DNA of 64,000 nucleotides from a bacterium (GCA_043803945.1 JAZDJN010000091.1:77128-141127), one strand, 5' to 3'; numbered from the stretch's first letter, positions 8,160-43,866 are shown. Made by a program: numbers and translations. Notes: generated by a model not told the origin, from the letters alone.

Positions 8160-8163
8160 CACC

Positions 8164-9719: not shown

Positions 9720-9840
9720 CATTGACACCAATACGATTCTCATGCTCATCGCTGAGATAGACCGGCATGGGAAGGTGTACACTATCCGGGATGAACAGAC
9801 TATGCCACGCCTGGGAAAAGGTGTCGATGCCGGAGGAGAT
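9700..9840 (+). pseudogene. ppx: Truncated Ppx/GppA phosphatase, N-terminal fragment
   Basis: MRISAIDIDTNTILMLIAE...PRLGKGVD matches the Ppx/GppA N-terminus (DIGTNT..RLG.GVD), with G replaced by D in the motif. Similarity ends after ~46 aa at the convergent desulfurase 3' end. Confidence 0.75.
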
Positions 9841-9844
9841 GATC

Positions 9845-11011: not shown

Positions 11012-11045
11012 AGATCGATTCTGCTCTTATTGTGTTAATAAGGTA

Positions 11046-11078
11046 ACAAAAAAGCCGGTCAAATAGTGTGGCCGGCTT
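11046..11078 (-). terminator. Rho-independent terminator after the ECF operon
   Basis: Minus strand AAGCCGGCCA-loop-TGACCGGCTT followed by TTTT. Confidence 0.75.
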
Positions 11079-11105
11079 ACCTGTCTAGAACGAGGGGAGT
11101 AAACC

Positions 11106-12773: not shown

Positions 12774-12796
12774 GGAGTCTTATGGTTACACAGAAG

Positions 12797-12824
12797 TTTG
12801 ACAGAGCACTGAAATAAAAGTTTA
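12797..12824 (-). promoter_or_regulatory. Putative autoregulatory ECF (sigmaE-like) promoter
   Basis: Minus strand TAAACTT-N15-GTCAAA, 24 bp upstream of the sigma ATG. Resembles the GGAACTT...GTCAAA consensus. Confidence 0.55.
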
Positions 12825-12874
12825 AGAGCCAAACCGATATTCTCCCCTTCGAAAACGTTGAGAATCGGCACTTA

Positions 12875-14152: not shown

Positions 14153-14198
14153 GAGCTTGTCCTTCTACAAGTTGGGGGGAAATTCACTACGATGAAGG

Positions 14199-14227
14199 AG
14201 TATACGCTGAAGTGAAGAGATTATCAA
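14199..14227 (-). promoter_or_regulatory. Putative sigma70-type promoter of the phosphatase gene
   Basis: Minus strand TTGATA-N17-TATACT. Confidence 0.55.
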
Positions 14228-14284
14228 CTTCATTTTCGGTATTTCTCAGTAAGTGTTCAGCAAGATGGGTAATCCATTATTCTT

Positions 14285-14393
14285 ACCACTGATGGCGCAC
14301 CGATGATCACCGAGGATGATAACTGGAGTACGTCGTATATCTTAAAAATAATAAAATAATATTATCTGTGTAAATCCGTGTGCCATCGGTGGT
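14285..14393. repeat. Palindromic intergenic element, family B copy 1
   Basis: 30-bp imperfect inverted arms ACCACTGATGGCGCACCGATGATCACCGAG / ATCTGTGTAAATCCGTGTGCCATCGGTGGT around an AT-rich spacer. Homologous to 60301-60425. Confidence 0.75.
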
Positions 14394-14423
14394 GAAATTG
14401 CTGAGCAAATACGGTTTTCAAAT

Positions 14424-14449
14424 GAAAAGGCAGCCAGAGGCTGCCTTTC
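14424..14449 (-). terminator. Rho-independent terminator after the cohesin gene
   Basis: AAAGGCAGCC-TCT-GGCTGCCTTT followed by TCATTT on the minus strand. Confidence 0.8.
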
Positions 14450-14476
14450 TTCTATGCTAAAAAACCGGTACCGAAA

Positions 14477-16360
14477 TCATCTGACGAGGGTCATCTTCTT
14501 TGAAGCATGATTTTCCCCTCCACTGATGCGATAGAAATAGACGCCGCTCGGCATACTCCGCCCATCGTCATTGGTTGCATCCCAAACGATGCTATGAATC
14601 CCGGCATTCATGTGTTTTCCCACAAAAAGCGAACGCACCTTAATCCCGATCATATTGTAAATCTCAAACGTAACCGGAGCTTCCTTTGGCAATGAGAAAT
14701 AGATTGTGGTTGTCGGATTGAAAGGATTCGGGAAATTCTGTCCAAGAGAAAATTCTGTTGGTATCAATTCTTCCTTCTCTGCAACTTCCGTTAAGGTCAT
14801 ATTCCATTCGGTCGAGTCTTTTGCGCCTTTCACATCGGTGAATACACAGGTGACCTTTCGCGGCATGTTATGGGCACCGGTAAAGGTGTCAGTATAGGTG
14901 CTGTCAAGTCCACTCTTTTTCGTGACACCATCAACTTTCCATGTATAGTTAACGGTATCCTTATCGAGGTCCTGAACACTGACCGTAAATTTTATTGGGA
15001 CATTTACGGAGATCGTACCGGCATTCTGAGGAGTCCGAAGCAGCAGTGTAGGCTTCCGGTTTACATCAGTAACCGTGATGGAAACGACTGTGCTATCGCT
15101 CAATCCACCGGAGTCGGTGACCTTAAAAGAAACAGAATAGCTGCCGGCTTGTGTAAATGATGGTGTCCATGAAAAGGCTCCGTTTGACTGATTCAATGCA
15201 GCACCAGAGGGCAGATTGGAAGAGGTGTAGACAAGAAGGTCTGCATCCGCATCTGATGCAGTAACGTTGAAGGATAAAGCCTGACCTTCAGCAACACTCT
15301 TGGCTGTTATCGGAGTAATGACCGGTTTCTGGTTGACATTTGTCACGGTGATCGTAACAACAATTGAGTCGCTCAGCCCTCCTGTATCCGTTGCTTTAAA
15401 AATGATCGGATAGGCACCTGCCTGTGTGAACGAAGGAGTCCACGCAAATGCACCTGTGGTTTGATTAAGTGATGATCCCTGAGGAGAGTTTGGTGAACTG
15501 TAAGTGAGTGCGTCGCCGTCGGGATCAGTCGCACTCAATGTAAAAACCAGTAACTGTCCCTCCGAAGTGGATTGAGGGGAAACGGTATTCATTGCCGGTT
15601 TCTGGTTGACATTGCTGACCGTTATTGAAAAGGCAAGACTGTCACTGAGTCCAAGGGCATCGGTGGCTCTTATCATCACCGAGTATGAACCCGATTGAGA
15701 AAGCGTAGGAATCCAGGTAAATACTCCTGTTGTTGCATTAATCGAAGCTCCCATCGGAGGATTAGAAAGACTGAAGGTAATTGCATCAGCATCCGGATCG
15801 GTTGCGGTGACGGTGAATGAAAGCTGTTTCCCTTCATCGATTGTTTTCGCCGGTATGGGATTGAGTACTGGTTTGCGATCGACGATAATAGAGCCGCTCT
15901 TGATCGAGTAGGTCAATCCTCCTCGTAAATTGAATGAGGTAAAGGTAAGATTGGTTTTTCCCTTTGCGCGCAACTCCGCTTTTACATAAATGAGCCTTCC
16001 ACTTCCTGTAAGATCTGTTGTACCGGCAGCTGCGACTGAAAGAGTATCCGGAATTTTATCCCAGTTCGTGATGATTAATCCACCAGCTGCATCAATAACT
16101 TCGGCAAATGTCCCAGGATATTCGGTTCCGATAAGTTTCGCGATCGTTGAATCATACGCTATCCGGAAGTCAAATGATTTCACCGCTTTGCCAGTCAAAT
16201 CACCGATATATATCGGGATCTTCATGATCGTCCCAGGCGCCCCAATAGTGTCGGGGAGAGTGACCGGAATTGCCTGTCCATAGGTGAATGCCGTGATAAC
16301 TGTTGTCAGGAGTATTGTCGTAATCAGCCGTTTCATAATTTTTCCTATTAAATTTTCCAT
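14477..16360 (-). CDS. Secreted scaffold-like protein: cohesin + 3 cadherin/He_PIG-like Ig repeats + Ig + T9SS type A CTD
   Basis: Signal peptide. Cohesin-like VTLPDTIGAPGTIMKIPIYIGDLTGKAVKSFDFRIAYDS. Three ~91-aa NQKP..ATDPD.D..FSWTP..QAG repeats. CTD QNFPNPFNP..SGVYFYRI..KKMTLVR. Confidence 0.8.
   Translation of the reverse strand: MENLIGKIMKRLITTILLTTVITAFTYGQAIPVTLPDTIGAPGTIMKIPIYIGDLTGKAVKSFDFRIAYDSTIAKLIGTEYPGTFAEVIDAAGGLIITNWDKIPDTLSVAAAGTTDLTGSGRLIYVKAELRAKGKTNLTFTSFNLRGGLTYSIKSGSIIVDRKPVLNPIPAKTIDEGKQLSFTVTATDPDADAITFSLSNPPMGASINATTGVFTWIPTLSQSGSYSVMIRATDALGLSDSLAFSITVSNVNQKPAMNTVSPQSTSEGQLLVFTLSATDPDGDALTYSSPNSPQGSSLNQTTGAFAWTPSFTQAGAYPIIFKATDTGGLSDSIVVTITVTNVNQKPVITPITAKSVAEGQALSFNVTASDADADLLVYTSSNLPSGAALNQSNGAFSWTPSFTQAGSYSVSFKVTDSGGLSDSTVVSITVTDVNRKPTLLLRTPQNAGTISVNVPIKFTVSVQDLDKDTVNYTWKVDGVTKKSGLDSTYTDTFTGAHNMPRKVTCVFTDVKGAKDSTEWNMTLTEVAEKEELIPTEFSLGQNFPNPFNPTTTIYFSLPKEAPVTFEIYNMIGIKVRSLFVGKHMNAGIHSIVWDATNDDGRSMPSGVYFYRISGGENHASKKMTLVR
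15050..15880 (-). repeat. Three tandem ~273-bp Ig-domain coding repeats
   Basis: CCGGTTTCTGGTTGACATT recurs at ~15322 and ~15595, 273 bp apart. The protein repeats are visible in the translation. Confidence 0.75.
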
Positions 16361-16407
16361 GATAACCCCCTTGTTCCTATTTGCTTTCGTAATTGCTCAG
16401 TTAGTTT

Positions 16408-16512
16408 GCCACAAAGCCACTATGACACAAAGTCTTTTTAACGACATCGGAATAGTATCGAGAAAAAAAATAAATATCTTACTTTTACTTTGTGACTTTG
16501 TGCCTTGGTAGT
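16408..16512. repeat. Palindromic element with ~9-bp periodic CACAAAG arms
   Basis: GCCACAAAGCCACTATGACACAAAGT ... ACTTTGTGACTTTGTGCCTTGGTAG. Confidence 0.65.
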
Positions 16513-16646
16513 TTAGTGTTTGCCTACTTTCTAATATATAAAATTCTTCTTTCGATTTCTACTCACAACACCTGATTAAGTATATCGATATCTACCGCAT
16601 CCTATTGTATCCTTTGTCACACACATTCCATACGGTTATTCCTGGA

Positions 16647-19600
16647 TCACCGGATAAGTAGCATTCTTTTCGATGCACGATAACCAGATGTTTCAAGGCA
16701 ATAAAGATAGATACCTGAGGAGGCTGCTTCTCCCGTCTCCGTTCTTCCATCCCATTGAACTCGTTGTTCACCGGCCTCGAGTTCACTGTTTTTCAATGTC
16801 TTAATCAACCTGCCGGAAATATCAAAAATCTGCAATTTTACGTGCCCTGAGACCGGCAATTGAAATTGAATCATCGTAGAGGGATTGAATGGATTAGGGT
16901 AATTCTGCATTAGCGCAAAATGGTGGTGAATCGCCACCGCTTCATACTGAATCTTTTCGATCACACGCTCATTCAGCATAGCTTCGAATTCCAATTCTAA
17001 GGATACGGTTGGATTCAACCGTTCTAGCGTAAATTGAGCGATACTACCCTTTTCGAGCGGTGATGCACCCGCCATTACGATTGTAATCGTTTCTCCCTTT
17101 ATTTCATGGCACAACTGCCAATCTTTAGGAAGAGTTCCGGCTATTGTTCGAATCCCTACTATTGTACTATCCCAGTTCCCCTTCATTTGAACAGAATAAA
17201 TTTTTTCACCATCTGTTTGGAGTATGAGCGGTATCTCTATCAAGCTCGTCTGATTGATCCTCCGTTGAACTCCCCACCCGAGAGAACCCGTTCGTTCACC
17301 CTGCTTCATTAGTCGGGGGTGTTCAGGTGCTGGCTGAACCGGAAAAACCGAAATCACTCCGGCAACGTACTGAAGAATTAACGAAGCATCGTAAGCGGTA
17401 ATTGTCCCATCCTTTGAAACATCAGCCAGAAAGAGTGTCAGTGGACCGGACAGCAGTTGAATACCGGCTACATGTAAGAGGATAAGCGAGGCATCGTATG
17501 CGGTGATCACATCATCTCCGCTCACATCCCCGGGACGACGGTTCTGGATAATCGTCACAGATGCCGTTGTGCTATCAGATGCACTGCCATCGCTGATTCG
17601 AACCGTAATTGTATAACGACCACCTGCCTGCGATAGGAGCGGGATCCAACGAATCCGCCCCTCATTGGTCAATGAACACCCCGGCGGAGCATTCAGCAGA
17701 TTGAAGATGAGCGGATCGCCATCAGCATCGAATGCCAGGTAGGTGAACAGCAGGGAGTCTTGTCCCGCACGCAAGGTCGTATCACGCAAGATCCTCGCAA
17801 ATCTCGGTGTGCGATTAACATTTTGTACGCTGATCGCCGAGGAATTCGTAATCGTAAACTGACCATCAGAAGCGGTGACAATAATCGAATAGGAACCGGC
17901 CTGTAAAAATGTTGGTACCCATCGAAGGATTCCATTCTTTTCGTCGATGGAGACACCTGTGGGTGGATTCAGGAGTGCGTAGAGAATCTCCTCGCCATAA
18001 TCACGAGGATCAGTACTGAACTTGTAGATGAGAGTATCATTTTCTCTGATTACCGTGTCTCTCAGTGCCTGCAGAAAGAGAGGCGGCCGTGTTGGATAAC
18101 CAATAGTAAACCGCGTTCCCTCTGGAATGAGATTAGCCAATGATCCTGTCGATCGAACTATGAGCAACGTATCGCCTGTACTTGAAACCTCCAGTGCATT
18201 CCTTCCATAGCTTAATCCGGATCCCTGCAATTGCCAGGGAGTCGCTAACAGATTACTCTCCTGCCGTCGTATAAGACGCAGATCAACGATGCGGCTAAAT
18301 GCCTGATCAGATTTTATTGTCTGAACTTCGATGTCACATTGCTGAGATTGGGACAGTGTCGGCAATGTCGATTGCAACGACCAGTAGCGTAGTCCATAAC
18401 TCCCTATTCGGATACCATTGCCCGCATCAAATGGCAATCCAACTGTCCCTTCTGCAGAACCAACAACCGCCTGAACCTCAATTGTTGGATTGGCTGTTGC
18501 CGGATACGCAGCAGTAAACGTCATAATGAATGGTTGATACCCTGTAACACTGCCAACAGGAAATTCATATTTTCCATTTGCCCACTGGAGTGGATTCCCC
18601 GCACCCACGCTGATGCTCTGACGAACTCTGCCGAGAATATGGGAAACATTTGCACCAACGATCCCGGTGCGATCGAATCCCTGCTGCGAAGCCTGTTGGG
18701 AAAGTGTAATGCTGGTAGTATCGGCCCGGAGTATTCCGTTGATGAAGTAGAGGAGTGAACCGGGATCCAGTTTCAGATCGCCGCCGCTCAGGCGAAATCC
18801 CAGTCGATTGTTTAATCGAAGATGAATCGCCGATGATCCACCCGGTAACACCAAACCCTGTGAGGGAACTTGAATAAGTTGTTCCTGGTTGCCCTGCAGG
18901 TCGATCGTGGTAGCAGAACCGGTTGGGTTGATGAAACTTCCTGCCTCGATCGTTAACGTTCCCTGAATGTGTAACGGTTGAGGAGCGAATGACCCCGGCA
19001 CTCCAAGTGCTATGCCGCCTCCCGTACAATTCAAACGCAAATCGCGTACGGTGCATTCCCGATGGAGCGTTACCCTTGTCGCGTTTCCCAGTGTATCGTT
19101 TACTACCTCGAGACTGAGGATTGTTTTACCAGGACCTGATTGAAGCTCTTTGTCCGACGATGTCAGCGAGGTACCAGAGCAATACCGAAGATAATAGCGT
19201 GAGACAGTCGGAGCATCCTGTGCTCCAAACGATGATTCGAATCTTCCCCGTCCAATGCTGAGCCGGGAGTTCTCGGCAAGCGTAAGATTATTACTGCCTT
19301 CATCCAATTCTCCATCCATCAGGTACAGAGTTCCCACGATAACAACATCTTTATCGAGTGTCACATTGTCCCGATCCGCCGATTGATTCGGATTGGAAAT
19401 AACCAGATCTTTAAGGATGGAGAACGAAGCCGGCAATTCCCGTTCTGTGATGAGGTTGCCGTTGGCAGAATCAACGAGATAGAGAAGATTTATTCTGCCT
19501 TCAAAAAGTGGAGCGGTTGAGATCTTAGCATCGGTTCGCCGTCTGATGACCGTCGCATTATCGGCAAGCAGAAGCGTACCGGCGGGAACTGCCAGTATTC

Positions 19601-22600
19601 CTCGCGAGAGATCCAGAGAACGTGTAATGTTAATTTTTTGATTCAGGGCTTCCGACTTCACTCCGGCGGGATTATCTATACGGAGCTGTGAAATTCGAAA
19701 ATCCGGTCCGGGATCGATGTACTGTTGCGCGTGGCCGGCCAGAAGGAATATTCCTGTCGTCGAAGAGATGCTCCCGCCATTCCGATTAAATGCCCGTAAA
19801 CCGACTCCACTCCCCACACCATCCAGGGAGAGGTTGTTCGCTCCAAGTGAGAATTCTCCTCCGCTCTGTGTGAAAATATCAGTCACATGAAGTGTATGGA
19901 TATCTGCGGTAAGCGATTCCAACGTAAAAATGCTTTGCGGATTAATAGGATCGAGAAGCAATTCTTCGATGCTATAATCGTTGGCTACTTCAATCCCGGT
20001 ACGAAATCCAGTAAGGATAAGCCTGCCCCCTCCCACTCCTGGAGTATTATTGGAAACGATGGCGATCTTATTTCCTGCCAAAGCTCCCTTGTCAAGCAGA
20101 GCGATGGCCGAACCGGACATTGTCAGATTAAAAGCATTCAACGAGAGAGATGGAATTCCAATGGAATCCTTTGATCCGATGGTCAATCTGCCAATGATCC
20201 GGGCATCTGAACTCAATCGTGTCGGTGCCAGGATCGTAAGATTCAGCAGCGCAGTTTCCACTACATTACTGAGTTGAATGGAGGTTTGAGGTTGTGCTAT
20301 TACCAGTGAACCACCTGCAGAAAGAAAACCCTGTGTATTTGATCCTTGCGCAAATCCTCCTGCACCAGCGATAACCAGATCGTAGCTGGTGAAGTTCAAC
20401 AAACCAGAAGAAAATTCTACACCGCCCATTGCATAAACAGCACTGGCCAGGGTTAGCAGTGCACCGCCAATATTGAGCGATCCGAAAATCGTTTGTTCGC
20501 TTGCCAGCACCACCCCGCTCGCATCCCGTGAACCCATGCGGAGTACTGTGATACTGGAGGGTACTGTTCTGAAAGATCCCATGAAGCCCTGAATGTACTT
20601 GATGGAACAAATATTTTGCGAAGCGATGATAATGTTGCCCAGAAGCGCAGCATCCCGGGTGAACTCGCTGCCAAGTATATTGACCTGCGCTCCACTCACG
20701 AGGAAATAATCGCCAACATCGGCCGTAAACAACATTCCACGAATTTGATGAGTAACGTCGGAAGCGCGCAACTCAACCACGTTGCCATTGAGGCCGTTGG
20801 AGGCAAACCGGACTGCAGCCAGCGGACCGATCGAGAGTGCTCCTTGAAATACCAATCCGCTTGCCGGAAGATCCAGATAGGCAAGCGAACCCGTTGCGAG
20901 GTTTCCATCATTGTCCCGAGTATCGCTGTTGACATTCAACGTAAGCGTTCTTACAAGGCCTGGTTCGGAAAGGAATTCGCTGCCGATGGCCGCAGCCGCA
21001 CTCAGTGAACCCAGATACTCAATATCGAATGACTGTCGACCAGTATTGAACAATCCGCCCGACAGGACGATACCATTCGAGAGAGCAAGATTTCGTGTTA
21101 TACGCGCCTGGGATCCCGCTGGTTCGATGATACTGGAAGGGACATTCAAAGAACCGGTGAACAAATTCAGCACCCCGCTAAAACGAGTATGACCCAACAC
21201 GGTGACACTGTTCGTCGTTCCAACATCAATCGTCAAATTCGAACAGAGGCCATTACTTGAACTCTCCAGCACGGCATTGGCAATTGGTTGAAATCCCGGA
21301 AGCAGTGAAGCTCCTCCGAAGATTATTCCCCCGGCCGATTCTGAGGAATATTGACCGTTAATAATAGCTTTCACGCCATTGGCGTTGAGGACGATTGAGC
21401 TACCCTTGAGATGAAGTTGTGAACCGGTGCTTAGTGAAAACTGGCCGGCAACCTGAAGCGAGTGTTGTATCGTCACTGCTGAAGCGGTATTGGCTATTGC
21501 GAGATTAGTAAGCTGGAGATTTGTACCACCGTCCATAGTTTGCGGAACGGATCCCTGCAGCAACACCACGGAAGCGAGCGCCATCTGAATTGTTCCATCC
21601 AACCGGAGAAAGTTACCATCGATTCGGAGTGTACTTCCCGATGATGTTCCCAAAAGCGTCATCCCACCGGATTGTGTGTAATGAAGGGTCTTCAGTGTTA
21701 CTCCATCAGGAACTCTGAGGAGACCATTCATTATATATATTGAATCAGACACTGCGCACGGAACCTCCAATACAAGCTCTCCAGCTTGCATTGATAATCG
21801 CCCTATGTTGCAGTTCTCGGTATTACAAATTGTTACTCCGCCGTCTGAATTGAGAAAGAGGTTTGAGATTGTTCCACCATCGAGTGTCATACTCCCATCA
21901 CGATGTGCAAATATAAGTTTTCCTGATGTAGCCTGGATCGTGCTTCCTTTTGTCCGATGATTGAATATGGCAGGGCTCGTCTGATTGCCCGAACCGTCAT
22001 TCAAGAATGGAGCATCCCGAACTGGCAATACCGTAAGATCCCAGGCTCCCAGGTTGATAATCTTGCCGGGAGCATTTGTTATCGGGAGCGAAACTGTTGT
22101 CGAACCATTCAAGGAGATTACTCCACCGGCTTCTCCGGAATTCAATAATTTGCCCCGAAGAGTACCAGACACCGATATTGAACCGCTGGAAGTATTAACA
22201 ATGTGCACCGTGAACGATCTGAAACCAGAATTGGACCCTCTCGTTACTGGAGCAGATATTCCTTTCGAGAAAACCAGTGAACCTGCAAAGATGTTTTCCA
22301 TCAGTACAGAGTAATACGCATCGCCAGACGGCGCCGTGATGGATGCTGCGCTTAACTGGACGGTAGAACTAAAATTGATCGACCCGGAAGAGGTATTCCG
22401 AACAAGCGATACCCCTTGACCGCTGCCGAATGACAATTCACTGAGAGGTTTGCCAACCGCATCGGGCGAAGCAAGCCAGACCACAGGCCCGGCAAAGCGG
22501 AGTGAACCTATTCCTGTGTTCTCTATTGTAGAGATCGATGCATCACCGGCCGTTGCCAATGCTCCGGCAATGAGAAGGAGAGTATCTTTAAAACTTACCT

Positions 22601-23591: not shown

Positions 23592-23676
23592 TGCAATCTC
23601 ATCGATCGAAAACGTTTAATCATTTTTTGTATTATTCAGCTTTTTTAGTAATCCTAGTACTTTCACTTATCTTTCT

Positions 23677-23738
23677 CCCCCTTTACCAAAGGGGGCCGGC
23701 CCGCTCCGCCGACGCGGGAGCGAGGCTGGAGGGGGATT
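23677..23738. repeat. REP-like hairpin with a nested GC-rich hairpin
   Basis: CCCCCTTT-ACC-AAAGGGGG, then CGCTCC..GGAGCG, then AGGGGGATT. Confidence 0.6.
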
Positions 23739-23793
23739 CTACAGCAAGCTGCAGATAAATCTCATTGAGAACTCCATTGACAAATCTCCCTTC

Positions 23794-23913
23794 GAGGTTG
23801 TCCAAAATGTAGGACGAGTTGCCAACTCGTCCACGTTGAGATAGTGAAAACATTTCATATTGCGCAATCTTGATCTATGACATACACCCATTAAGTACTT
23901 TTTGGACAACCTC
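23794..23913 (+). mobile_element. 120-bp MITE-like element, copy 1
   Basis: Perfect 14-bp TIR GAGGTTGTCCAAAA/TTTTGGACAACCTC. Internal GTAG-GACGAGTT-GCC-AACTCGTCC hairpin. Homologous to 63451-63570. Confidence 0.8.
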
Positions 23914-24065
23914 AATATGGTCCGCGTAGACGAACAACAATGCATGAACCATTCCGTTCTCCATTTATCCAGTATATAAACGAATGGAAAATACAATACC
24001 CTTATAGTGTGCTAATTATATTAGCATTCACGTTTCTGTTATAATTACAGCTTTAAAATATCGGT

Positions 24066-24107
24066 TAAAACAACAAAGGCAGACACCCAGCCGGGGTCTG
24101 CCTTTGT
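24066..24107 (-). terminator. Rho-independent terminator after the dual-cohesin gene
   Basis: Stem ACAAAGGCAGAC/GTCTGCCTTTGT followed by TGTTTT on the minus strand. Confidence 0.8.
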
Positions 24108-24133
24108 GAACAACATAAACATTCCAACACCGA

Positions 24134-25837
24134 TTACTTCATCAATGTCATCTTCATCGATGCTTGGAAGCCACCGGCATTAAAGCGGGCGATGTAGATA
24201 CCGGTTGTAACGCTTGCACCGGCTTCGTTCTTTCCATCCCACTTCATGGTATATCGTCCTGCATTCATTGCCGTTCCGGCAATGAGCGTTCGGACTTTCA
24301 CACCGAGAACGTTGTAGATCTCGAGTGTAACGGGAGCTTCTTTTGGCAACTCAAAGTTGAGATTGGTTGTCGGGTTGAACGGATTTGGGTAGTTCTGATT
24401 CAATGCAAATTCCGTTGGTATTACTTCAACATCGGAGACCGGTGTCACTGTGGTACTCCATGAAACGGAATCTTTCAGACCGCCTGCATCCGAGAACACA
24501 ACTCTAAAGACAAATGCAGTACCGTGTGTCTGTGTTGGAATATACGAAAATGCATTTGTCGTGGACGACTGCACGACGCCATTCACAGTCCATACATACG
24601 TAACCGCATCACCATCAGGGTCACTTACAGTAACCGAGAAGGAGAACGGAACGTTTCTGGAAATAGCCGTAGGAGCCGTTGCCGGAACCTGCGCCGATTT
24701 CACTGGTTTGCGATTAACGTTTGTCACTGTGATCTTTGCTTTTGCAGTGTCAGTCAATTGACCGTCACTTACAACAACATTGATATTATATGGTGTCGCG
24801 CTGCCTTGTTCATAGGTCGGCGTCCATGTGAACACACCGGCTGTTGTCACCGCTGCACCTGTTGGGCCACCAACGAGTGAAAATGTCAATGGTGTTCCTT
24901 CAGGATCAGTGGCAGTATAGGTAAATGAAACAGCTTCATTCTCATTTACTGTCTTATCAGCAAGCTTATTCACAAAGACCGGTTTGTTGTTGATTGCAAC
25001 CGTCACCGTACCATCGATACCAGCACCGGTTGGCGTACCTTCATTGAATTTCACCGAGGTGAACTTCACATCCGAGGTACCGCCGGCCACGATTTCTGCG
25101 ACGAGATCTATCAATGTACCGGTTCCTGTTAAAGCATCGGCACCTGCGCCGGCAATTTTCACCGTGCCAGAAGTGGCAGTATTTGCCTGCACGGAAAAGT
25201 TTGCAGACATCGTTCCGGTTTTCGAAACACCGGTGATCTTAATCTTTGCAGGATCGTAGGTGAGCGCCAGCTCGTAGGAAACGATAGCTTTACCAGTGAC
25301 ATCCTCTGTCTTGATGGGAATATTGAATTTCCCGCCGACAACGGATGTAACGACTGTCGTCTGAACATTGATGGCAAATGTTGGTGCAGAGACAGAGCCG
25401 TCTGTGGTGGCTGCTGACGGAGTACCATCATTGAATACCATCGTTGTAAATGTTAATGGCGACGTGCCTTTGGCAATCAGTGTTCCCTTCAAATTGATTA
25501 ATGTACCGCCAGTACTAGCAAGAGGATCGATCTGTGCAGCAGCGATCTTTACGACTCCACCGCTAATATTCTTCTGGATCGTCATCCCAGCGGACACTGT
25601 ACCAATTTTATCCACGTCAGTAATTGTGACTATCGTAGGATCGTAAGATATCGACAAGTCATAGGAGATCACCCCTTTACCTGTGAGATCTCCGACCGTC
25701 ACAGGAATCGTCACAGCTCCTAACGTTCCCGTTATGTTGGGCATGCTAACAGTAACTTGAGCCACGCTGATCCCGCTAAAGATCAACACGACCATCGCCA
25801 CCGCTAGATACCTGGTGAAGAATCTTAAGTTAAGCAT
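24134..25837 (-). CDS. Secreted mini-scaffoldin-like protein: 2 cohesins + Ig + Ig + T9SS CTD
   Basis: Two homologous cohesin-like repeats (IPVTVGDLTGKGVISYDLSISYDPT...FNDGTP / IPIKTEDVTGKAIVSYELALTYDPA...FNEGTP). CTD QNYPNPFNP..MKMTLMK. Confidence 0.85.
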   Translation of the reverse strand: MLNLRFFTRYLAVAMVVLIFSGISVAQVTVSMPNITGTLGAVTIPVTVGDLTGKGVISYDLSISYDPTIVTITDVDKIGTVSAGMTIQKNISGGVVKIAAAQIDPLASTGGTLINLKGTLIAKGTSPLTFTTMVFNDGTPSAATTDGSVSAPTFAINVQTTVVTSVVGGKFNIPIKTEDVTGKAIVSYELALTYDPAKIKITGVSKTGTMSANFSVQANTATSGTVKIAGAGADALTGTGTLIDLVAEIVAGGTSDVKFTSVKFNEGTPTGAGIDGTVTVAINNKPVFVNKLADKTVNENEAVSFTYTATDPEGTPLTFSLVGGPTGAAVTTAGVFTWTPTYEQGSATPYNINVVVSDGQLTDTAKAKITVTNVNRKPVKSAQVPATAPTAISRNVPFSFSVTVSDPDGDAVTYVWTVNGVVQSSTTNAFSYIPTQTHGTAFVFRVVFSDAGGLKDSVSWSTTVTPVSDVEVIPTEFALNQNYPNPFNPTTNLNFELPKEAPVTLEIYNVLGVKVRTLIAGTAMNAGRYTMKWDGKNEAGASVTTGIYIARFNAGGFQASMKMTLMK

Positions 25838-25884
25838 CGTGTCTCCTCTGTGTGTTTATGGTCTAATTAGATAAGAGTTATTAC

Positions 25885-25908
25885 CCCGAACCGCCGAAGC
25901 GGTTCGGG
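25885..25908 (-). promoter_or_regulatory. Intergenic stem-loop with a cUUCGg tetraloop
   Basis: Minus strand CCCGAACCGC-TTCG-GCGGTTCGGG, a perfect 10-bp stem with no U-tract after it. Confidence 0.7.
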
Positions 25909-25927
25909 ATGATTTTCTAACTGCACC

Positions 25928-28900
25928 TTACTTGATTAACATCATCTTGTTCGATGCAACAAATGACCCGGCTTGAACACGATAGAGGTAGAGGCCAGAT
26001 GCGACTGATTGACCAGCATCATTGCGACCATCCCACACTATGGAGTAGTAACCGGCTTTTTGTTCCTGGGCGACCACTGACCGAATCTTCTGACCCTGCA
26101 TATTATAGATCACCAGGTTCACGGCTGCATCCTGTGCAATCCGATACTTAATGGTGGTTGTCGGGTTGAAGGGATTCGGATAGTTCTGATCGAGACCGAA
26201 CTCGGACGGAACGAGACTGATCTCGGTTGCATCCATGGTCTGACCAATGCCATCATTCAAGAAGCCTTCACCGCTCACTGTGAGACGGTTCTCTTTGTTC
26301 TTCAGCTTGAAGCTCACAACTGCTGCTTCGCCAGTCACAGGGGTTAGACCTGCTGCTGCAACGGTCAATGTACCATCTTCGACCTTGTACAGAAGTGTCC
26401 AGTCCTGAGGAAGTTTAGATGCAACTTCATTGACTGTGGCGATTGCCGCGTTGAACTTCATTGTGAATTGCATCGATGTGATGTTTCGTGCATCATCGGA
26501 AACCTTTACGCCCATGGTAACTGCATCCGCTTTCGCAACCGGGTTCTTCCATTCGATGGAACCGACTGAAGCTTCGGATTTACCAAGTGCAGCTGGGGCA
26601 AATACTACGGGATAGCCAGCAACCTTCTGGAGAATCAAGGATGCGTCGTATGCGTTCACAGTGGTGTTACCAGAGACATCACCAGCCCAGAGAGCTTCCG
26701 GATCGGTAATGGTGATAAGGCCGACTGCGTGTTGCAATGCAAGCGATGCATCTTCTGCGAGTACTGCATTGTCGCCAGAAATGTCACCTTTAATGCGTGC
26801 ACGGTTGACGGTAACATTGAAGGTTTGTTCCACTGCTGGAGCAACACCATCTGTTACGCTAACCTTCACGGCATACGTCTTTGTGGCATCGAGATACTCT
26901 GGCTGCCATGTCAACGCTGTGCCTGTCAAAGCCGGCAGGTTGGTTGCTGTGGCAGGAGCAGGAGTAACGCTATCAAATGCATAGGTTAATGCATCGGTAT
27001 CGAGATCGGAAGCTGCGAGAGTAACATTCAGCCTCTCTGTCCACTTAATGGTCTGTGCAGTGACTGCGGTAAACACTGGTGCACGGTTCACGTTATTCAC
27101 GGTAACCACGACTGTGTCATAAGCGGTCAATGGACCATAGGTATCAGTTGCACTAACAACAAAGTTCGTAGTGACTGATGGTGTAGCTTTCGTTGCAAAA
27201 GTATATGGGATAGCCCATGTGATCTTTCCAGCGGCCAGAGCAGAGGCACCTTCCGGAGCAAGCACTTTGGCCATTGTCACAGCATCGCCACCGAGATCAT
27301 AATCAACAGCAACCCAGGTCAACTCAACCGTTTCGCCTTCATTCTTTGGCACATCGGCAGGCATCGTTGTGAAAGTCGGTGCCTTGTTGATTTGGCTATA
27401 GGTAAAGAGTGAACCTTGAGTTGTGATACCACCAGTTGCATCGATAGCTTTCACAACCGGCCATGTCAGGTTAACAGTAGAGTTATCATACAGCCGTGTA
27501 CCAGTATTATAATTTTTCTGTTCAAGCCACTGGTTATTGTAATTACCAGAGTCTCGGCGGATCAATCGGACATTCTGGATTGCATCTGCGACATATTCTG
27601 CATATCCCTCAGCCTGTGCTTCGATATCAAACACATACGAAGGAGCCAGAGGAATATCAGATTTCACGGACCAGAAGAATCCCGGATAGTTTGTAAGATT
27701 CAAATCAGAACCATCTTGTTTCTTCGAGAGAATCTTGAATCCATTTTCACCACCTGGTCGTGAATTCACATGACTCACCGTAATGGTAGCCGCACTCTGA
27801 GGAGTGTTCTTAAAGAATACGCTCAACGGTCGATAGTAACCAACCGATGCGGGCATCGTTCCAACTGGGAACGTTACAACACTGCGGTCAATCGAAGTAC
27901 CAGTGCTATTATTGACATATTTACGAACGTTTCCAACAAAGTGACTGAAATCACCAGTTGCAACCGAACGACTGAAACCTTGAGTCGGTTTGTTAGTGAG
28001 GGGATGGTTACCCTGGATCAACGTCCATACAAAGTCAACAGTAGTGACAATTACACCTTTTGTAAAGATAACGTTACTGCCAGTACCCATAGTGACGTTA
28101 CCGCCTCCAAGAGTGACCTTCTTATCGACATCTGCTGTTGCGGCACTGTTGACCTGAACATCGACAGGCGGTGTCTCGCCTGCACCTACGTCAATATAGT
28201 CACCGTCAGCATTCCCATCCACACCGCTTGGTAACGTTAATCCTGCTGCGGGAACCGTTATCGTCTGAAAGGTAGTTCCTTGGAAGACGACTTTAGGAAC
28301 GCTCGTTCCAGCCGTAGTCCATGCAACTGTGATGAAATTACCAGCGGTTACTGCTAAATTGCCAGTAATGGTCAGATTGCGTGTCAGACCTCCGACAGTA
28401 TTCAACTGTATTCCACCACCGGTAGCGTTAATGGTAACATTCGTTACTGTAGCGCTTGCATGTGGCGTAAGGACGGTATTTGTAGTTTTCACCGTAAGAC
28501 CAAGCAAAGTCGCGGCAGTTTGAAGCTGCTCAGCAGTACTTGTAACGGCAGCACCACCGCTATACACCAAGTAGTACGATGTCACAGTTGGTGAGTCAGG
28601 GCCGGAACCTTCAAAATTACCAGTTCCGATTTCTAACGTACCACCCGCAGCAATCGTAATTGCTTTGGTTGTCTCATCGAGCAAACCAGCCTGTAGATAT
28701 AACGTACCGCTTACTGTTACATCTTTGCCCATATCAACCTGATCGTTGACACCACCACCGACAGTTCGGTTGACAGTAAAGTTAAATACCGCAGCCGAAA
28801 GTTCGTTACCGGTAGCAATGGCAGCAGCCTCAGCACCACTATATTCAACATTGGTATTGGTACCGAAGACTACTGTATTGGTCACTGTTGAGGTGGTAAG

Positions 28901-31900
28901 AGTACGAATAACCGTTCCACCATCGCCAATTTTCAACTTGCTGGCATCAATCAATAACGCACCGGCTCCACTCAGTTTCAGCGTACCAGAGACGATCAAC
29001 AGGTTATCTGTCACTTCGCTGTTTTGTACGCCACCAACTGTGGTTGCAATAGTAAGGTTCGGGATCGTCAGATCAACACCTGGTTTAAAGAATTGAGCTG
29101 CGCCACCAGAGAAAATCACCTCACCAGTAGCAGATGCAGTAATTGTACCGACGGTTCTCACGAATGCATCAGTACCAGCACCATTGGCCAATGAGAGATC
29201 ATTTGCACCAAGGGCTAATGTACCTTTTGTCATCGTGAAGACACCCGCAGCAACATTACCAACCGTAATAGTTCGATCGGAGGGTGTGCTTGATCGATTT
29301 ACGGTGACAGTTCCGTCTGTATTGAGTGTCAGATTAGGAAGCGTCGGATTGCCGTTGCCGTCGAAAGTCACTGTGGCTCCTGTGACAATGAGTGCGCCGG
29401 CTGCACCGAGGGTGTACGAACCTGCTGTGAATGTATAGTTTGTTCCAGAGAGAGTAATATTCGTCGCTCCGAGTGTCACGGCTGCATTAGTATGTTTCAG
29501 AACACCGGACACTGTGAAGCTTGCATTGATCGTGATACCATTACCACCTGTTCCGGCAAACTCGAGATTTGCGACGGAGAATGCTGCACCAGGGGTAAAA
29601 TCAATTGCAGCCGCTGTTTCGTTAAAGATCAGATATCCTGCACCTGTAAATGTTCCGGCACCGGTTCTGAGATAATCCGGCGAGGCACCACTGCCATTTT
29701 GCTGATAGTTAAATCCGCCGTTCTCGATATTCCCGGCAACCTGTGATGTCGAGCCAGCAATAATCACGTTGCTGCCGAGGATTAACTTACCGGCAGTCAG
29801 CGTCACATTACCAGCAACCGTTGTAAGAGCGCCACCGCGTGTGAAAGTCAGTGTACCGTTGGATACTGTGAGGTTACCGCCATCAACTGATGTTGATGAA
29901 CCCTTAATCGTTACCGATGCATTTGGTCCTAATGTCGCATTACCGACAACCAGGTTTCCAGTAAGGGTTGAACTTGTGCCATTCATCGTGAAGGTTGCCG
30001 TGGCACCTGTTTTTGTACTAACACCCTGTAAGGTGAGATTACCACTTACGACCTTCAGGTCTGTTGAGGTGAAAGAGTACCCATTATCAGCCGGTTCAAA
30101 GGAGAAACTATTGAGCTGAGATTGTGTGTTCGAAGAGGTTGAGGTTGTACCGACTAATGTACATCCATTTCCTGTTTCTATTAGGATACCCGCTGCAGTG
30201 ATTTGTCCAATAACTGTGTGCGAACGATTGTCGCCTGTCAAGGTAATCGGATTTGCAGCGTTACCGCCGCTGATTAATCCACCCCGACCGACATAGAGAG
30301 AACCAGTGATATTCAGGTTCTGTGCCGGGAGGTTGAATTCAGTAATATTCGTTGCATTATCTGTAAGCTTCAGATTCCCCTTGATTGTAACCGTTGCGCT
30401 GTGCGAAAGAATCAGCTTATTGGCTGCTGATGTCGTCGTAATCGTAAGATTACGAACGTTGGCCGCTGTAAATTCAGCTCCGCCTAACGCACTGGCAACC
30501 GTCGCAGTGACGTCGCCAGTAATGGCGCCGTAGTACTCAAGATCGTAATCAACCGGGGAATTTGTATTGAATCCACCTGCTGTCACAATAACACCATTTG
30601 TACTTCCAGCACCTGTAGCGAGATTTCGGATGACACTGGCTGTTGTTCCAGTTGGGCCGAAGCTACCACCGGCATTGTTGACTTCCAAATCACCGGTAAC
30701 CATGCGGAGGATACCATTGAATTTCACATTGTTTGCAGCATTCATCTGTACTTTATTCGCAGTACCGACATCAATAGTGATATAAGAGTATGTTCCTGTA
30801 CCAGCGATTGTGGTGCCCGTGACAGCTGCGCCGCCAACCACTGTTGTGGAACCACCAAAGATCACTCCACCACCACCAATGGCAGTATAGGAACCATTGT
30901 TGATGATGGCAGCACCTACTGCATTGAGGATAATATTCAATGTGCTCATATCGAGGTTTGTGCTTCCTGAAATCGTTACTGTTCCAGAGGCACGAATCGA
31001 TTGACCAACGGTAATGGTTCCAGCCGTATTGGTAAAGGTAAGATTACCAAGTTGAAGCAATGGACCGCCATTGACCTGCTGGGTTGTAGTACCGGTGAAT
31101 GTTACGAAAGAAGCTGCACCGGCGGTAAAGGTACCGGCAGTTCTATTGAAATCATTCTTAACATTCAGAATTGAAGCAACATTGTTTGCAAGAGTAATTA
31201 TTCCACCAGACATCGTGAATCCACCGGTGGTCAAGGTAAAGTTACCGACTGCCAGGGTACCACCAGAAAGCGTCGTGACACCCGCGCCAGAAACAGTCGT
31301 GTTAACACTGATGTTTGCTGTACCAGCGCTGACGGATAAGCTGCTCAGGGTTGTCGCATTTGTTCCAAAGGTTAACGTTCCTGATCCACTCATGGTCACA
31401 TTGGATAATGTACCGCCATCAAATGAAGCGGCGCCAGAAGCCGATACGACAATACCGGCTGGGCTTGTTGCGGTAACGGTTCCACCATTGGTCGCATGAG
31501 CAACAGAACCCGAAAGGGTTAGCACATTACCACCAAGGGCAACTGTACCGGCGTTGGTAAACGCACCGGCAACAGAAAGCGCTGCGGTTACGTTCGTTGT
31601 TGCACCACCAACGTTTGTCAACGTACCACGGATTGTGCCACCGGCAATATTCAATGTGCCACCGGAAGCACCGTTGTTCACATTGAGAATAACATAAGTA
31701 ATACCGGCTCCACCAGAGGCTGCCGAAAGATTTCCAAGCGTGAGGACACCGGCTGCTCCGTTATTGGCTGTAGCAGTTGCGTGCCAGGCAGCAGTTGCTT
31801 GTGAGTTTGCCAATGATACTGAAGAAGCAAACACAATAGAACCGGTCGATTGGTTATCGACGATATAGGTATTTGCACCTGCTGCAAACACATTGGCACC

Positions 31901-32842
31901 TGTAAAGGTACCGGCAGTCCAAGTCACTGCGCCATTCATTTGTACTGTACCAGTACTTGTATTCTCGATGCTGCCGAGGTTACCATCGGCTGTACCATCG
32001 GTGATACTCAATCCGAGGGTGTTATCGAATTTCAATGTACCAGTACCACTGTTGGTAATGTCATTCGCTCCAACGCTAACTGCGGCACTGAAGGTTGCAT
32101 TACCGCTGGTGACAACGATACCGCCAGTTGCCGTGATGGCGTAAGGTAGTGTCACTGTTGTTCCTGCAGTCTTTGCTACTGTAATGACTCCCGTTCCATA
32201 GGATGCATAGTTTGCCTCGGGGCCACCGGTGACATCGCTGCCGCCGTTATAGGTAAGGCTGAGGTTTGTGCCCTTCTGCGGAGCCTGGTTTGTAAAGGCC
32301 GATGAACCATTCATCACAATACCAATACCGGTTGCTAAACGGAAGAAGGAGGCAGTTCCGATACTCATACTGGAATTGCGCGTGCCGCTTCCCAGGGTCA
32401 GCGTGTTGCTAAGGGTAAAATATTCTGTATTGTTGGTTGTGATGATATTCAGAGTGCCACCAGAAATATCATAGGTAAATGTACCAGCACTCATTAAAAC
32501 ATTGTTGTTGGAGTTCAACGATCGTAGTTCGATCGTGAGTGATCCGCTGGCGGTGAGAGCGGCATACGTTGCCGTCGTGATTGCAACGTTACCACCTGCG
32601 TTATCACCACCATTGTAGGTACCAGCAAAGATAACAACATTGCCATTATTTGCGACGAGGGAGAGTCCCTTGTTAATGGTCGCAACAGGTCCAGATCCTG
32701 CTGGATTGTTGGTTGCATTGGCACCAGTGTAGGTGTCAGATCCGTTCGTCACGTCGACATACACAGTCGCGAGTTGACTGAACGCGGTCATCGTTGCCAC
32801 CAACATCAGTGCAACAACCAATAAGAATGTTTTTGTATTCAT
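25928..32842 (-). CDS. Giant secreted surface protein A: G/T/A/N-rich beta-helix-like body + 2 Ig + dockerin + cohesin-like + T9SS CTD
   Basis: Signal peptide and strong RBS GGAGG. VYVDVTNGSD..GPVATINKGL..IFAGTY. Dockerin GDISGDNAVLAEDASLALQ / GDVSGNTTVNAYDASLILQ (26615-26788). CTD QNYPNPFNP..SGLYLYRV..NKMMLIK. Colinear paralog of 16647-23591. Confidence 0.87.
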   Translation of the reverse strand: MNTKTFLLVVALMLVATMTAFSQLATVYVDVTNGSDTYTGANATNNPAGSGPVATINKGLSLVANNGNVVIFAGTYNGGDNAGGNVAITTATYAALTASGSLTIELRSLNSNNNVLMSAGTFTYDISGGTLNIITTNNTEYFTLSNTLTLGSGTRNSSMSIGTASFFRLATGIGIVMNGSSAFTNQAPQKGTNLSLTYNGGSDVTGGPEANYASYGTGVITVAKTAGTTVTLPYAITATGGIVVTSGNATFSAAVSVGANDITNSGTGTLKFDNTLGLSITDGTADGNLGSIENTSTGTVQMNGAVTWTAGTFTGANVFAAGANTYIVDNQSTGSIVFASSVSLANSQATAAWHATATANNGAAGVLTLGNLSAASGGAGITYVILNVNNGASGGTLNIAGGTIRGTLTNVGGATTNVTAALSVAGAFTNAGTVALGGNVLTLSGSVAHATNGGTVTATSPAGIVVSASGAASFDGGTLSNVTMSGSGTLTFGTNATTLSSLSVSAGTANISVNTTVSGAGVTTLSGGTLAVGNFTLTTGGFTMSGGIITLANNVASILNVKNDFNRTAGTFTAGAASFVTFTGTTTQQVNGGPLLQLGNLTFTNTAGTITVGQSIRASGTVTISGSTNLDMSTLNIILNAVGAAIINNGSYTAIGGGGVIFGGSTTVVGGAAVTGTTIAGTGTYSYITIDVGTANKVQMNAANNVKFNGILRMVTGDLEVNNAGGSFGPTGTTASVIRNLATGAGSTNGVIVTAGGFNTNSPVDYDLEYYGAITGDVTATVASALGGAEFTAANVRNLTITTTSAANKLILSHSATVTIKGNLKLTDNATNITEFNLPAQNLNITGSLYVGRGGLISGGNAANPITLTGDNRSHTVIGQITAAGILIETGNGCTLVGTTSTSSNTQSQLNSFSFEPADNGYSFTSTDLKVVSGNLTLQGVSTKTGATATFTMNGTSSTLTGNLVVGNATLGPNASVTIKGSSTSVDGGNLTVSNGTLTFTRGGALTTVAGNVTLTAGKLILGSNVIIAGSTSQVAGNIENGGFNYQQNGSGASPDYLRTGAGTFTGAGYLIFNETAAAIDFTPGAAFSVANLEFAGTGGNGITINASFTVSGVLKHTNAAVTLGATNITLSGTNYTFTAGSYTLGAAGALIVTGATVTFDGNGNPTLPNLTLNTDGTVTVNRSSTPSDRTITVGNVAAGVFTMTKGTLALGANDLSLANGAGTDAFVRTVGTITASATGEVIFSGGAAQFFKPGVDLTIPNLTIATTVGGVQNSEVTDNLLIVSGTLKLSGAGALLIDASKLKIGDGGTVIRTLTTSTVTNTVVFGTNTNVEYSGAEAAAIATGNELSAAVFNFTVNRTVGGGVNDQVDMGKDVTVSGTLYLQAGLLDETTKAITIAAGGTLEIGTGNFEGSGPDSPTVTSYYLVYSGGAAVTSTAEQLQTAATLLGLTVKTTNTVLTPHASATVTNVTINATGGGIQLNTVGGLTRNLTITGNLAVTAGNFITVAWTTAGTSVPKVVFQGTTFQTITVPAAGLTLPSGVDGNADGDYIDVGAGETPPVDVQVNSAATADVDKKVTLGGGNVTMGTGSNVIFTKGVIVTTVDFVWTLIQGNHPLTNKPTQGFSRSVATGDFSHFVGNVRKYVNNSTGTSIDRSVVTFPVGTMPASVGYYRPLSVFFKNTPQSAATITVSHVNSRPGGENGFKILSKKQDGSDLNLTNYPGFFWSVKSDIPLAPSYVFDIEAQAEGYAEYVADAIQNVRLIRRDSGNYNNQWLEQKNYNTGTRLYDNSTVNLTWPVVKAIDATGGITTQGSLFTYSQINKAPTFTTMPADVPKNEGETVELTWVAVDYDLGGDAVTMAKVLAPEGASALAAGKITWAIPYTFATKATPSVTTNFVVSATDTYGPLTAYDTVVVTVNNVNRAPVFTAVTAQTIKWTERLNVTLAASDLDTDALTYAFDSVTPAPATATNLPALTGTALTWQPEYLDATKTYAVKVSVTDGVAPAVEQTFNVTVNRARIKGDISGDNAVLAEDASLALQHAVGLITITDPEALWAGDVSGNTTVNAYDASLILQKVAGYPVVFAPAALGKSEASVGSIEWKNPVAKADAVTMGVKVSDDARNITSMQFTMKFNAAIATVNEVASKLPQDWTLLYKVEDGTLTVAAAGLTPVTGEAAVVSFKLKNKENRLTVSGEGFLNDGIGQTMDATEISLVPSEFGLDQNYPNPFNPTTTIKYRIAQDAAVNLVIYNMQGQKIRSVVAQEQKAGYYSIVWDGRNDAGQSVASGLYLYRVQAGSFVASNKMMLIK

Positions 32843-43853: not shown

Positions 43854-43866
43854 AAAACCAAATGCA

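Follow-up and report, generated by a model that had tools for sequence, protein, structure and literature searches.

Tandem Genes for Giant Dockerin Proteins and Small Cohesin Proteins in an Ignavibacteria-like Bacterium: A Candidate Non-enzymatic Surface Assembly Exported by the Type IX Secretion System

Introduction

Gram-positive cellulosomes are, by textbook account, held together by cohesin–dockerin pairs; to our knowledge, the many non-cellulosomal copies of these domains are mostly without an assigned role. Type IX secretion system (T9SS) cargo that carries a type A C-terminal domain (CTD) is exported, loses the CTD to a PorU-type sortase and ends up either linked to a glycolipid of the cell surface or set free; in Bacteroidota, PorU fixes CTD proteins to anionic lipopolysaccharide. 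The present work concerns a locus in which both kinds of domain occur together: four adjacent minus-strand genes at positions 14477-32842 of a 64,000-nucleotide stretch of DNA (GCA_043803945.1 JAZDJN010000091.1:77128-141127; hereafter the window) from an Ignavibacteria-like bacterium, with the boundaries that an earlier note on this DNA had given. Judged by its domains and predicted folds, the locus appears to be a tandemly duplicated two-gene module for non-enzymatic cell-surface assembly.

The closest published idea found is the "cellulosome-like" complex of the Cloacimonadota. According to the accessible part of that paper, Candidatus Stygibacter encodes a CTD-bearing scaffoldin of 3755 aa with tandem cohesins and carbohydrate-binding modules (CBMs), proposed to hold dockerin proteins that are mostly enzymes (GH18, GH57, S8 and C25), with one non-enzymatic, glycine-rich member (PMC8542988). 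The two systems share an origin in the FCB (Fibrobacterota–Chlorobiota–Bacteroidota) group and a cohesin protein with a T9SS CTD, and both are proposed from sequence alone; unlike the complex as described in that part of the paper, the present locus has no enzymes, its cohesin proteins are small, stalked and limited to one or two cohesins, and it carries a dockerin–cohesin–CTD cassette (PMC8542988). The earlier note, which implied a first Gram-negative cohesin–dockerin scaffold, was thus overstated, given this T9SS-CTD scaffoldin proposed in 2021 and the fact that NCBI already names some relatives of the small proteins "cohesin domain-containing protein".

Cohesins and dockerins outside cellulose degradation are also found, as here, in NagJ (a GH84 protein of Clostridium perfringens), in the cohesin of PDB entry 2xdh and in Chlorochromatium, where the adjacent genes Cag_2037 and Cag_2038 encode large immunoglobulin (Ig)-rich proteins with complementary cohesin and dockerin modules that have been modelled (bioRxiv 10.64898/2026.03.19.712371, accessible part). 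These cases differ in following Gram-positive Sec, archaeal and type I secretion routes, respectively, and in joining enzymes or toxin-like proteins, and the accessible parts of the sources describe no cassette. The sole statement on the point in the accessible part of a paper on Melioribacter roseus is that its cellulases lack dockerins (PMC3534657), and the words Bacteroidetes and Bacteroidota are absent from the accessible text of a 2025 cellulosome review (PMC12484212). In the literature covered, drawn largely from outside the subscription journals, no description of a dockerin–cohesin–CTD cassette or of the giant proteins reported here was found.

Clostridial anchoring and adaptor scaffoldins (type I/II cohesin–dockerin) resemble the present locus in their cohesins, their two-loop dockerins and their small surface-fixed cohesin proteins, and adaptor scaffoldins, like the giants described below, combine a dockerin and a cohesin in one protein. 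They differ in relying on S-layer homology domains or sortase in a Gram-positive envelope, whereas here the envelope is of the Gram-negative type and export and anchoring would proceed through the T9SS CTD. The clostridial cellulosome, moreover, is made of dockerin-bearing enzymes and a CBM; neither was found in the window, where the presumed cargo would be a giant β-solenoid.

Results and Discussion

The Four Genes and Their Export Signals

The locus comprises two giant proteins, each followed by a small partner:

25928-32842, minus strand: giant protein A (P0004), 2304 aa
24134-25837, minus strand: small partner A (P0003), 567 aa
16647-23591, minus strand: giant protein B (P0002), 2314 aa, paralogous to giant A
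14477-16360, minus strand: small partner B (P0001), 627 aa

From its N-terminus, P0004 consists of a signal peptide, a predicted β-solenoid body, a conserved β domain, two Ig/cadherin-like domains, a dockerin, a cohesin-like domain and the T9SS CTD. P0003 has a signal peptide, two successive cohesins, an Ig and PKD-like stalk (Big_9 by Pfam) and a CTD, and P0001 a signal peptide, one cohesin, three He_PIG/Big_9 Ig domains (He_PIG being matched over three stretches by Pfam), a PKD-like domain and a CTD. The Ig stalks of the small proteins therefore carry two (P0003) and one (P0001) Pfam-significant cohesins, in agreement with the earlier note, which had described each giant as followed by a small protein of one or two cohesins plus Ig domains. 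The giants are about 30% identical across their full length; for the small proteins, identity is 45% within the last 300 residues. Since the two giants are paralogous and the two small proteins related, the locus is best read as a tandem duplication of a two-gene module.

Export by the T9SS is indicated at both ends of every protein:

25931-26206, minus strand: T9SS type A CTD of P0004, TIGR04183 36.4 bits
24149-24391, minus strand: CTD of P0003, TIGR04183 29.8 bits
16650-16901, minus strand: CTD of P0002, TIGR04183 35.8 bits
14492-14734, minus strand: CTD of P0001, TIGR04183 31.0 bits

All four CTDs exceed the curated TIGR04183 cut-off of 23 bits, and putative Sec signal peptides, read by eye and not by a predictor, are present at all four N-termini. 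With both features each protein qualifies as T9SS type A cargo, and the earlier claim of four consecutive secreted proteins of this type holds with exact coordinates. Directly after the likely signal-peptidase site, again read by eye, a Gln appears to be present in all four proteins (YG↓QA, AA↓QT, VA↓QV and FS↓QL), which fits the Bacteroidetes "Q-rule" of N-terminal pyroglutamate.

Dockerins and Cohesins

Each giant carries a two-repeat dockerin close to its C-terminus, as the earlier note had proposed for these proteins of about 2300 aa:

26609-26803, minus strand: dockerin of P0004, residues 2014-2078, two EF-hand-like loops, Pfam 17.6 bits, family hidden Markov model (HMM) 95 bits
17352-17546, minus strand: dockerin of P0002, Dockerin_1 31.4 bits

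The cut-off of Pfam Dockerin_1 (PF00404), 22.9 bits, is passed by the P0002 dockerin and not by that of P0004. In all 19 aligned giants, both Ca-type loops begin and end with an unvarying Asp, at positions 1 and 12 (D2020, D2031, D2055 and D2066 in P0004), and the giant-family profile matches the solved dockerins 4uyq_B (E 5e-9) and 1ohz_B (E 2e-4). In the AlphaFold2 model, the P0004 dockerin forms three helices with a predicted local distance difference test score (pLDDT) of 83-91. The giant dockerins thus show the predicted features of the dockerin type I family, the Pfam score being reached by P0002 alone. A purpose-built HMM search located dockerins within the 64-kb window in the two giants only.

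The cohesins and cohesin-like domains of the locus are distributed as follows:

25406-25753, minus strand: cohesin 1 of P0003, Pfam 36.2 bits
25031-25369, minus strand: cohesin 2 of P0003, Pfam 36.2 bits
15929-16264, minus strand: cohesin of P0001, Pfam 30.5 bits
26207-26581, minus strand: cohesin-like domain of P0004, residues 2088-2212, Pfam Cohesin 24.0 bits
16926-17306, minus strand: cohesin-like domain of P0002, cassette HMM match

The three cohesins of the small proteins all lie above the gathering cut-off of Pfam Cohesin (PF00963), 24.1 bits. Between the dockerin and the CTD, each giant contains an additional domain of about 125 residues, which falls just below this cut-off in P0004 and gives no Pfam Cohesin match in P0002. 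Compared by hhalign with 205 cohesin domains of small proteins, however, this post-dockerin domain is matched with 97.4% probability (E 9e-12). It is on account of this profile–profile match that the locus is counted as holding five cohesin-like domains, three by Pfam and two by hhalign, the number given in the earlier note. The giant-family profile also matches the PDB cohesins 2xdh_A (E 3e-5), which we take to be from Archaeoglobus fulgidus, and 2o4e_A of NagJ (E 0.002). AlphaFold2 predicts the P0004 domain as a β-sandwich, joined to the dockerin by a linker of about 10-20 residues with a pLDDT of 45, and across the 19 aligned giants the domain is retained along with both Ca loops. A complex prediction for the P0003 cohesins 1-2 (residues 25-285) with the P0004 dockerin (residues 2012-2080) scored 0.13 against a mark of 0.32 and, being without controls, speaks neither for nor against binding.

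The locus was also considered as a cellulosome, and this candidate was set aside: the only dockerins of the window lie on the giants, whose bodies match no catalytic family, and the small proteins, with one or two cohesins and no CBM family found in the Pfam scans, do not correspond to a multi-cohesin scaffoldin with a CBM. It is the lack of dockerin-bearing enzymes and of a CBM that separates the locus from a cellulosome.

The Giant Body

Most of each giant lies upstream of these modules. In P0004 two regions are distinguished:

27983-32650, minus strand: β-solenoid body of P0004, about residues 65-1620, AlphaFold2 model, without a known-family match
27398-27955, minus strand: conserved β-rich domain without family assignment, about residues 1630-1815, with invariant W1724, R1759, R1763 and W1772

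AlphaFold2 models of the two halves of P0004, built on an alignment of 19 giant sequences, reach a mean pLDDT of 85.3 (N half) and 82.6 (C half). The N half is predicted to contain 46% strand and 3% helix, and its 125 short, regularly spaced strands are the reason why the body is considered a β-solenoid. If each rung has three strands and a rise of 4.8 Å, the whole body would form a rod about 30 nm long.

No credible or catalytic family was found for the giant body in Pfam at E<=1, and the PDB sequence profile search with the giant family gave nothing before profile position 1737; the earlier statement that no enzyme is recognizable is in line with both results. A FlgD_tudor match in P0004 residues 1151-1820 (28.1 bits, cut-off 26.9) was judged spurious, and the Pfam Beta_helix repeat (PF13229) is not matched by the P0004 body at E<=1. 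A Foldseek search of the PDB with the N-half model returned no match at E<=1e-3; the weak top neighbors (E 0.1-8) are all β-helical and comprise PL6 alginate lyases, Ag43, SepA, Fap2, EtpA and RsaA. The model and these neighbors together suggest the β-helix fold class. Consequently, of the β-helical subunits proposed in the earlier note, the model gives a confident picture, while the fold matches are only weak. Like the β-helical autotransporter and two-partner secretion adhesins and RsaA, the giant body would be a long, repetitive β-solenoid surface protein without an enzyme, with the reservation that the fold matches to Ag43, SepA, Fap2, EtpA and RsaA are not significant (E 0.1 to 8) and that secretion and anchoring differ.

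Across the 19 homologues, the invariant residues of the body are mostly Gly, and no conserved acidic cluster is visible when the alignment is read by eye. For the 1630-1815 domain, Pfam and PDB sequence searches gave nothing. The Foldseek search with the C-half model returned Ig-array look-alikes only (Robo, titin and contactin) and is uninformative for the dockerin, the cohesin-like domain and the 1630-1815 domain. Searches of the ESM Atlas yielded clusters that are unnamed or named "beta strand repeat-containing", with scores <=0.90, which serve as leads only; for the 1630-1815 domain all are unnamed.

The Dockerin–Cohesin–CTD Cassette in Other Proteins

Sequence comparison indicates that what is new here is the C-terminal end of the giants, a fixed dockerin–cohesin–CTD cassette that appears to be widespread and to sit mostly on non-enzymatic cargo. 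Five sequences, namely the two window giants and those of loci L001, L002 and L003 of the genome scan described below, were used to build a profile covering the dockerin and the cohesin-like domain, which was searched against 1.84 billion representative proteins. At E<=1e-3 it matched 26,876 of them; 3090 remain at E<=1e-10 and 168 at E<=1e-30, and many of the weaker matches will be due to the dockerin alone. Among the best 150 representative clusters, 109 contain the whole cassette and 41 the dockerin part only, often 5-12 times. Among the 109 whole-cassette clusters, 102 have 80-110 residues (median 92) between the end of the cassette and the C-terminus, a distance that corresponds to the size of a CTD.

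The 109 whole-cassette proteins range from 290 to 3267 aa. A Pfam scan at E<=1e-6 covered 60 of them, all shorter than 1500 aa (the remaining 49 are longer), and no catalytic family of glycoside hydrolases, lyases, esterases or peptidases was detected among these 60. Their bodies match SBBP, FG-GAP and PQQ propellers, Ig-, PKD- and cadherin-like arrays, lectin-like domains, MAM, CHRD, Fib_succ_major and Beta_helix, all of them binding or structural folds; one protein carries a CotH kinase domain. Several possess additional N-terminal cohesins, for instance P0320 and P0358 with two. About 10 of the 60 (290-382 aa) contain scarcely more than a signal peptide and the cassette, and minimal forms of 290-337 aa are represented by P0258, P0263, P0281, P0328 and P0356. 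A word-based search with the window cassette gave 64 matches, many of them proteins of about 1500-1900 aa with Beta_helix (PF13229), dockerin, cohesin and CTD; enzymes are rare among them (two S8 peptidases and one FGE-sulfatase domain).

The giant family itself comprises 53 matches, about 25 of full length, many with PF00404 and all metagenomic; the few named relatives belong to Ignavibacteria or Melioribacteraceae and are annotated "hypothetical". The small cohesin–Ig–CTD family is larger, with at least 1287 relatives in Ignavibacteria, Melioribacter, Marinimicrobia, Rhodothermales and Acidobacteriota bins. Four giant homologues (P0007, P0015, P0016 and P0035) share the size of their longest contig with the cohesin proteins P0116, P0102, P0096 and P0172, an indirect sign of linkage.

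Gene Neighborhoods in Other Genomes

Gene neighborhoods were taken from a genome scan keyed on the CTD motif QNYPNPFN alone, so that most of the 77 loci obtained are generic T9SS cargo and the synteny statistics are thin. Purpose-built HMMs detected a dockerin in 7 loci and a cohesin of the small-protein type in 3, and a true giant homologue is present in one (L002); as the loci were chosen by similarity to the giant C-terminus, these fractions are not population estimates. In all three cohesin loci (L002, L012 and L064), the cohesin–CTD gene lies directly downstream of a dockerin–CTD gene on the same strand. L002, from a Melioribacter metagenome-assembled genome (MAG), repeats the arrangement of the window: a giant comes first, a two-cohesin protein with 37% identity to P0003 second and a P0001-like protein (36%) third. 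In L012, from an Ignavibacteriae MAG, a Beta_helix–dockerin–CTD protein of 1960 aa precedes a cohesin–Ig–CTD protein, and in L064 a GDSL-lipase–Big_1–dockerin–CTD protein precedes a cohesin–CTD protein. The unrelated dockerin proteins of L012 and L064 contain no cohesin of their own by the purpose-built HMM, and therefore their dockerin partner is not intramolecular.

Of the other four dockerin loci, L001 encodes SBBP plus the cassette, L003 the cassette, and L069 a dockerin-only open reading frame. In L030, from a Gemmatimonadota MAG (7277-24481, plus strand), five consecutive T9SS proteins combine FG-GAP, Laminin_G_3 (LamG) or PKD domains with a dockerin and a CTD; this dockerin "battery" has no cohesin within 10 kb, and its partner must be encoded elsewhere.

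The PorU-like Neighbor

Besides the conserved cassette, a second feature beyond the earlier note is the gene directly upstream of giant A, which is followed further upstream by a glycan cluster:

33664-39057, minus strand: PorU-like C25 peptidase (P0005), 1797 aa, Peptidase_C25 195 bits, directly upstream after an 821-bp gap
39054-46114, minus strand: Wzx-type polysaccharide cluster with two GT4 and one GT2 glycosyltransferases, a flippase, a 441-aa protein without a Pfam family and a WecG/TagA glycosyltransferase

P0005 remains under both NCBIfam cut-offs (NF052324 "PorU2", 364 bits with a cut-off of 450; NF033707 PorU, 309 bits with a cut-off of 420). Its match to PorU 6za2_A reaches E 1e-15 and aligns the His of GH(S/G)G and a Cys, which we take to be the C25 catalytic pair; the protein additionally contains an ILEI/FAM3-like domain (residues 1253-1343), CARDB and its own T9SS CTD. 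P0005 might act as sortase on the four cargo proteins. Type A CTDs and a PorU-like C25 neighbor with aligned His and Cys are features that the locus shares with the T9SS surface coats of Bacteroidota; it differs from them in the PorU scores of P0005 and in the proposed cohesin–dockerin cross-linking, which the papers found do not report for known cargo. A conserved linkage of such loci to PorU2 was considered and dropped, the linkage being seen only in the window. The polysaccharide cluster, which lies directly upstream of the PorU-like gene, could, speculatively, synthesize the glycan that serves as attachment point for T9SS cargo.

Proposed Assembly and Its Alternatives

Taking into account the domain identities, the predicted folds, a body in which no enzyme family was found, the recurring gene set and the conservation of the cassette as a unit, it is proposed, with a probability of roughly 0.5, that the stalked cohesins of the small proteins and the dockerins and cohesins of the giants form a non-enzymatic, self-assembling surface coat of tethered and cross-linked rods. 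Sec would carry the four proteins through the inner membrane and the T9SS through the outer one; the CTD would next be cut off by a PorU-type sortase, and the new C-terminus would be fixed to a surface glycolipid, or the protein released. The Ca-loop dockerin of a giant would dock onto one of the stalked small proteins' cohesins, with these proteins acting in the manner of anchoring scaffoldins, and the giant's own cohesin would offer a further socket for another dockerin. Rods of about 30 nm, tethered and cross-linked in this way, might give a coat, a fiber layer or an adhesin mesh. The domain parts of the earlier note are right, its assembly into a layer, sheath or network goes beyond the sequence, and the concept is partly known, so that the proposal as a whole is partly supported.

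It is possible, and here put forward tentatively, that the cassette is a general Ca-dependent plug-and-socket of FCB-group T9SS bacteria and their neighbors, by which many unrelated non-enzymatic cargo proteins (rods, propellers, lectin-like and Ig arrays) would be polymerized or cross-linked on the outer membrane into a modular coat resembling an S-layer or glycocalyx in function, with small cohesin proteins as primers or anchors; at the present locus, a dedicated PorU paralogue and the glycan cluster would supply the covalent anchor. The locus and the cassette would then suggest a second large use of cohesin–dockerin pairs, namely the building or cross-linking of the surface coat of T9SS bacteria that abound in sediments, soils and bioreactors but are rarely cultured. 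If the binding is true, a role would be gained for the giant T9SS proteins now labelled "hypothetical", which form a widespread class, together with a handle on the surface architecture and adhesion of Ignavibacteria and their relatives and with natural parts for Gram-negative surface display (a CTD anchor and orthogonal cohesin–dockerin pairs).

Several observations weigh against the proposed coat. Pfam's cut-offs are missed by the dockerin of P0004 and by the cohesin-like domains of both giants, and the Ca dependence of the giant dockerins is presumed from their conserved loop residues. If every protein is held covalently by its CTD site, there is no evident need for an additional non-covalent tether, and an intramolecular dockerin–cohesin contact in the giants is possible. 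The gene neighborhoods are likewise divided: a cohesin gene adjoins the dockerin gene in 3 of the 7 dockerin loci, and none was found within 10 kb in L001, L003, L030 and L069. Finally, no PorU-like neighbor occurs in any of the other 77 loci, including the orthologous L002.

The main rival explanation is that the cassette is a self-association unit, acting within the same chain, in a reciprocal dimer or in a head-to-tail chain, so that cassette-bearing cargo would oligomerize, with the small cohesin proteins as incidental or modulating components. Such self-association is compatible with a cross-linked coat and does not exclude it. It would account for the occurrence of the cassette on many bodies without an adjoining small cohesin gene (as in L001 and L003), for the roughly 10 of 60 representatives that are little more than signal peptide and cassette, and for the flexible linker between the dockerin and the cohesin-like domain; as a full explanation it is nevertheless rather unlikely, since the dockerin proteins of L012 and L064 have an adjoining cohesin gene and no cohesin of their own, and since the set of giant, two-cohesin and one-cohesin genes is common to the window and L002. 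The low Pfam scores of several domains, together with rows of dockerin-only T9SS proteins without a nearby cohesin as in L030, could alternatively be understood if the dockerin and cohesin-like domains were partnerless structural or Ca-binding spacers, serving folding or CTD presentation to the T9SS, and the proteins independent adhesins that have no more in common than building blocks of exported proteins. Given the conservation of both Ca loops and of the cohesin-like domain in the 19 giants, the fixed order and spacing of the cassette in 102 of 109 clusters and the cohesin genes that repeatedly come after dockerin genes, this explanation appears improbable.

A cryptic enzyme has also to be weighed, in which case the body would be an unrecognized polysaccharide-active β-helix lyase or hydrolase and the locus a cellulosome-like enzyme display. 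PL6 alginate lyases are among the weak top fold matches (5gkd_A, E 0.1), related dockerin–CTD proteins carry Pfam Beta_helix (L012 and many of the word-search matches), and a polysaccharide biosynthesis cluster lies nearby. Set against this are the empty Foldseek result at E<=1e-3, with adhesins and an S-layer protein as the other weak neighbors, a body without a credible Pfam family or PDB sequence match, and the predominance of Gly among its invariant residues with no acidic cluster visible, so that an enzymatic role of the body is considered very improbable. The non-enzymatic coat of tethered rods remains the preferred reading.

Surrounding Genes and Regulatory Signals

Further genes flank the locus on either side, and a hairpin is found within it:

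48746-56549, minus strand: T9SS type A cargo of 754 aa with BNR/Ycf48-like repeats, DUF6850, DUF4876 and TonB-dependent receptor genes
25885-25908, strand not assigned: strong GC-rich hairpin with a 10-bp stem (8 GC pairs), within the 90 bp that separate giant A from small partner A
11106-14152, minus strand: downstream genes for a GAF-SpoIIE (PP2C) phosphatase, an extracytoplasmic function (ECF) sigma factor, a zf-HC2 anti-sigma factor and a small open reading frame

No dockerin or cohesin was detected at 48746-56549. Rfam gave no RNA family within 14000-40000, and in the scan neither promoter-like sites (38 vs 28.1±4.5 in shuffles) nor terminator-like sites (19 vs 16.3±4.9) were enriched over the shuffled sequences. 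Two promoter-like sites, each with 11 of 12 positions matched, are located upstream of giant A, and one hairpin each lies 3' of giant A and 3' of small partner A. The sole repeat in a direct-repeat search is the CTD-coding motif common to all four genes. The hairpin at 25885-25908 might set the ratio of the giant A product to that of small partner A. The genes at 11106-14152, directly downstream of the four genes, may form a regulatory unit.

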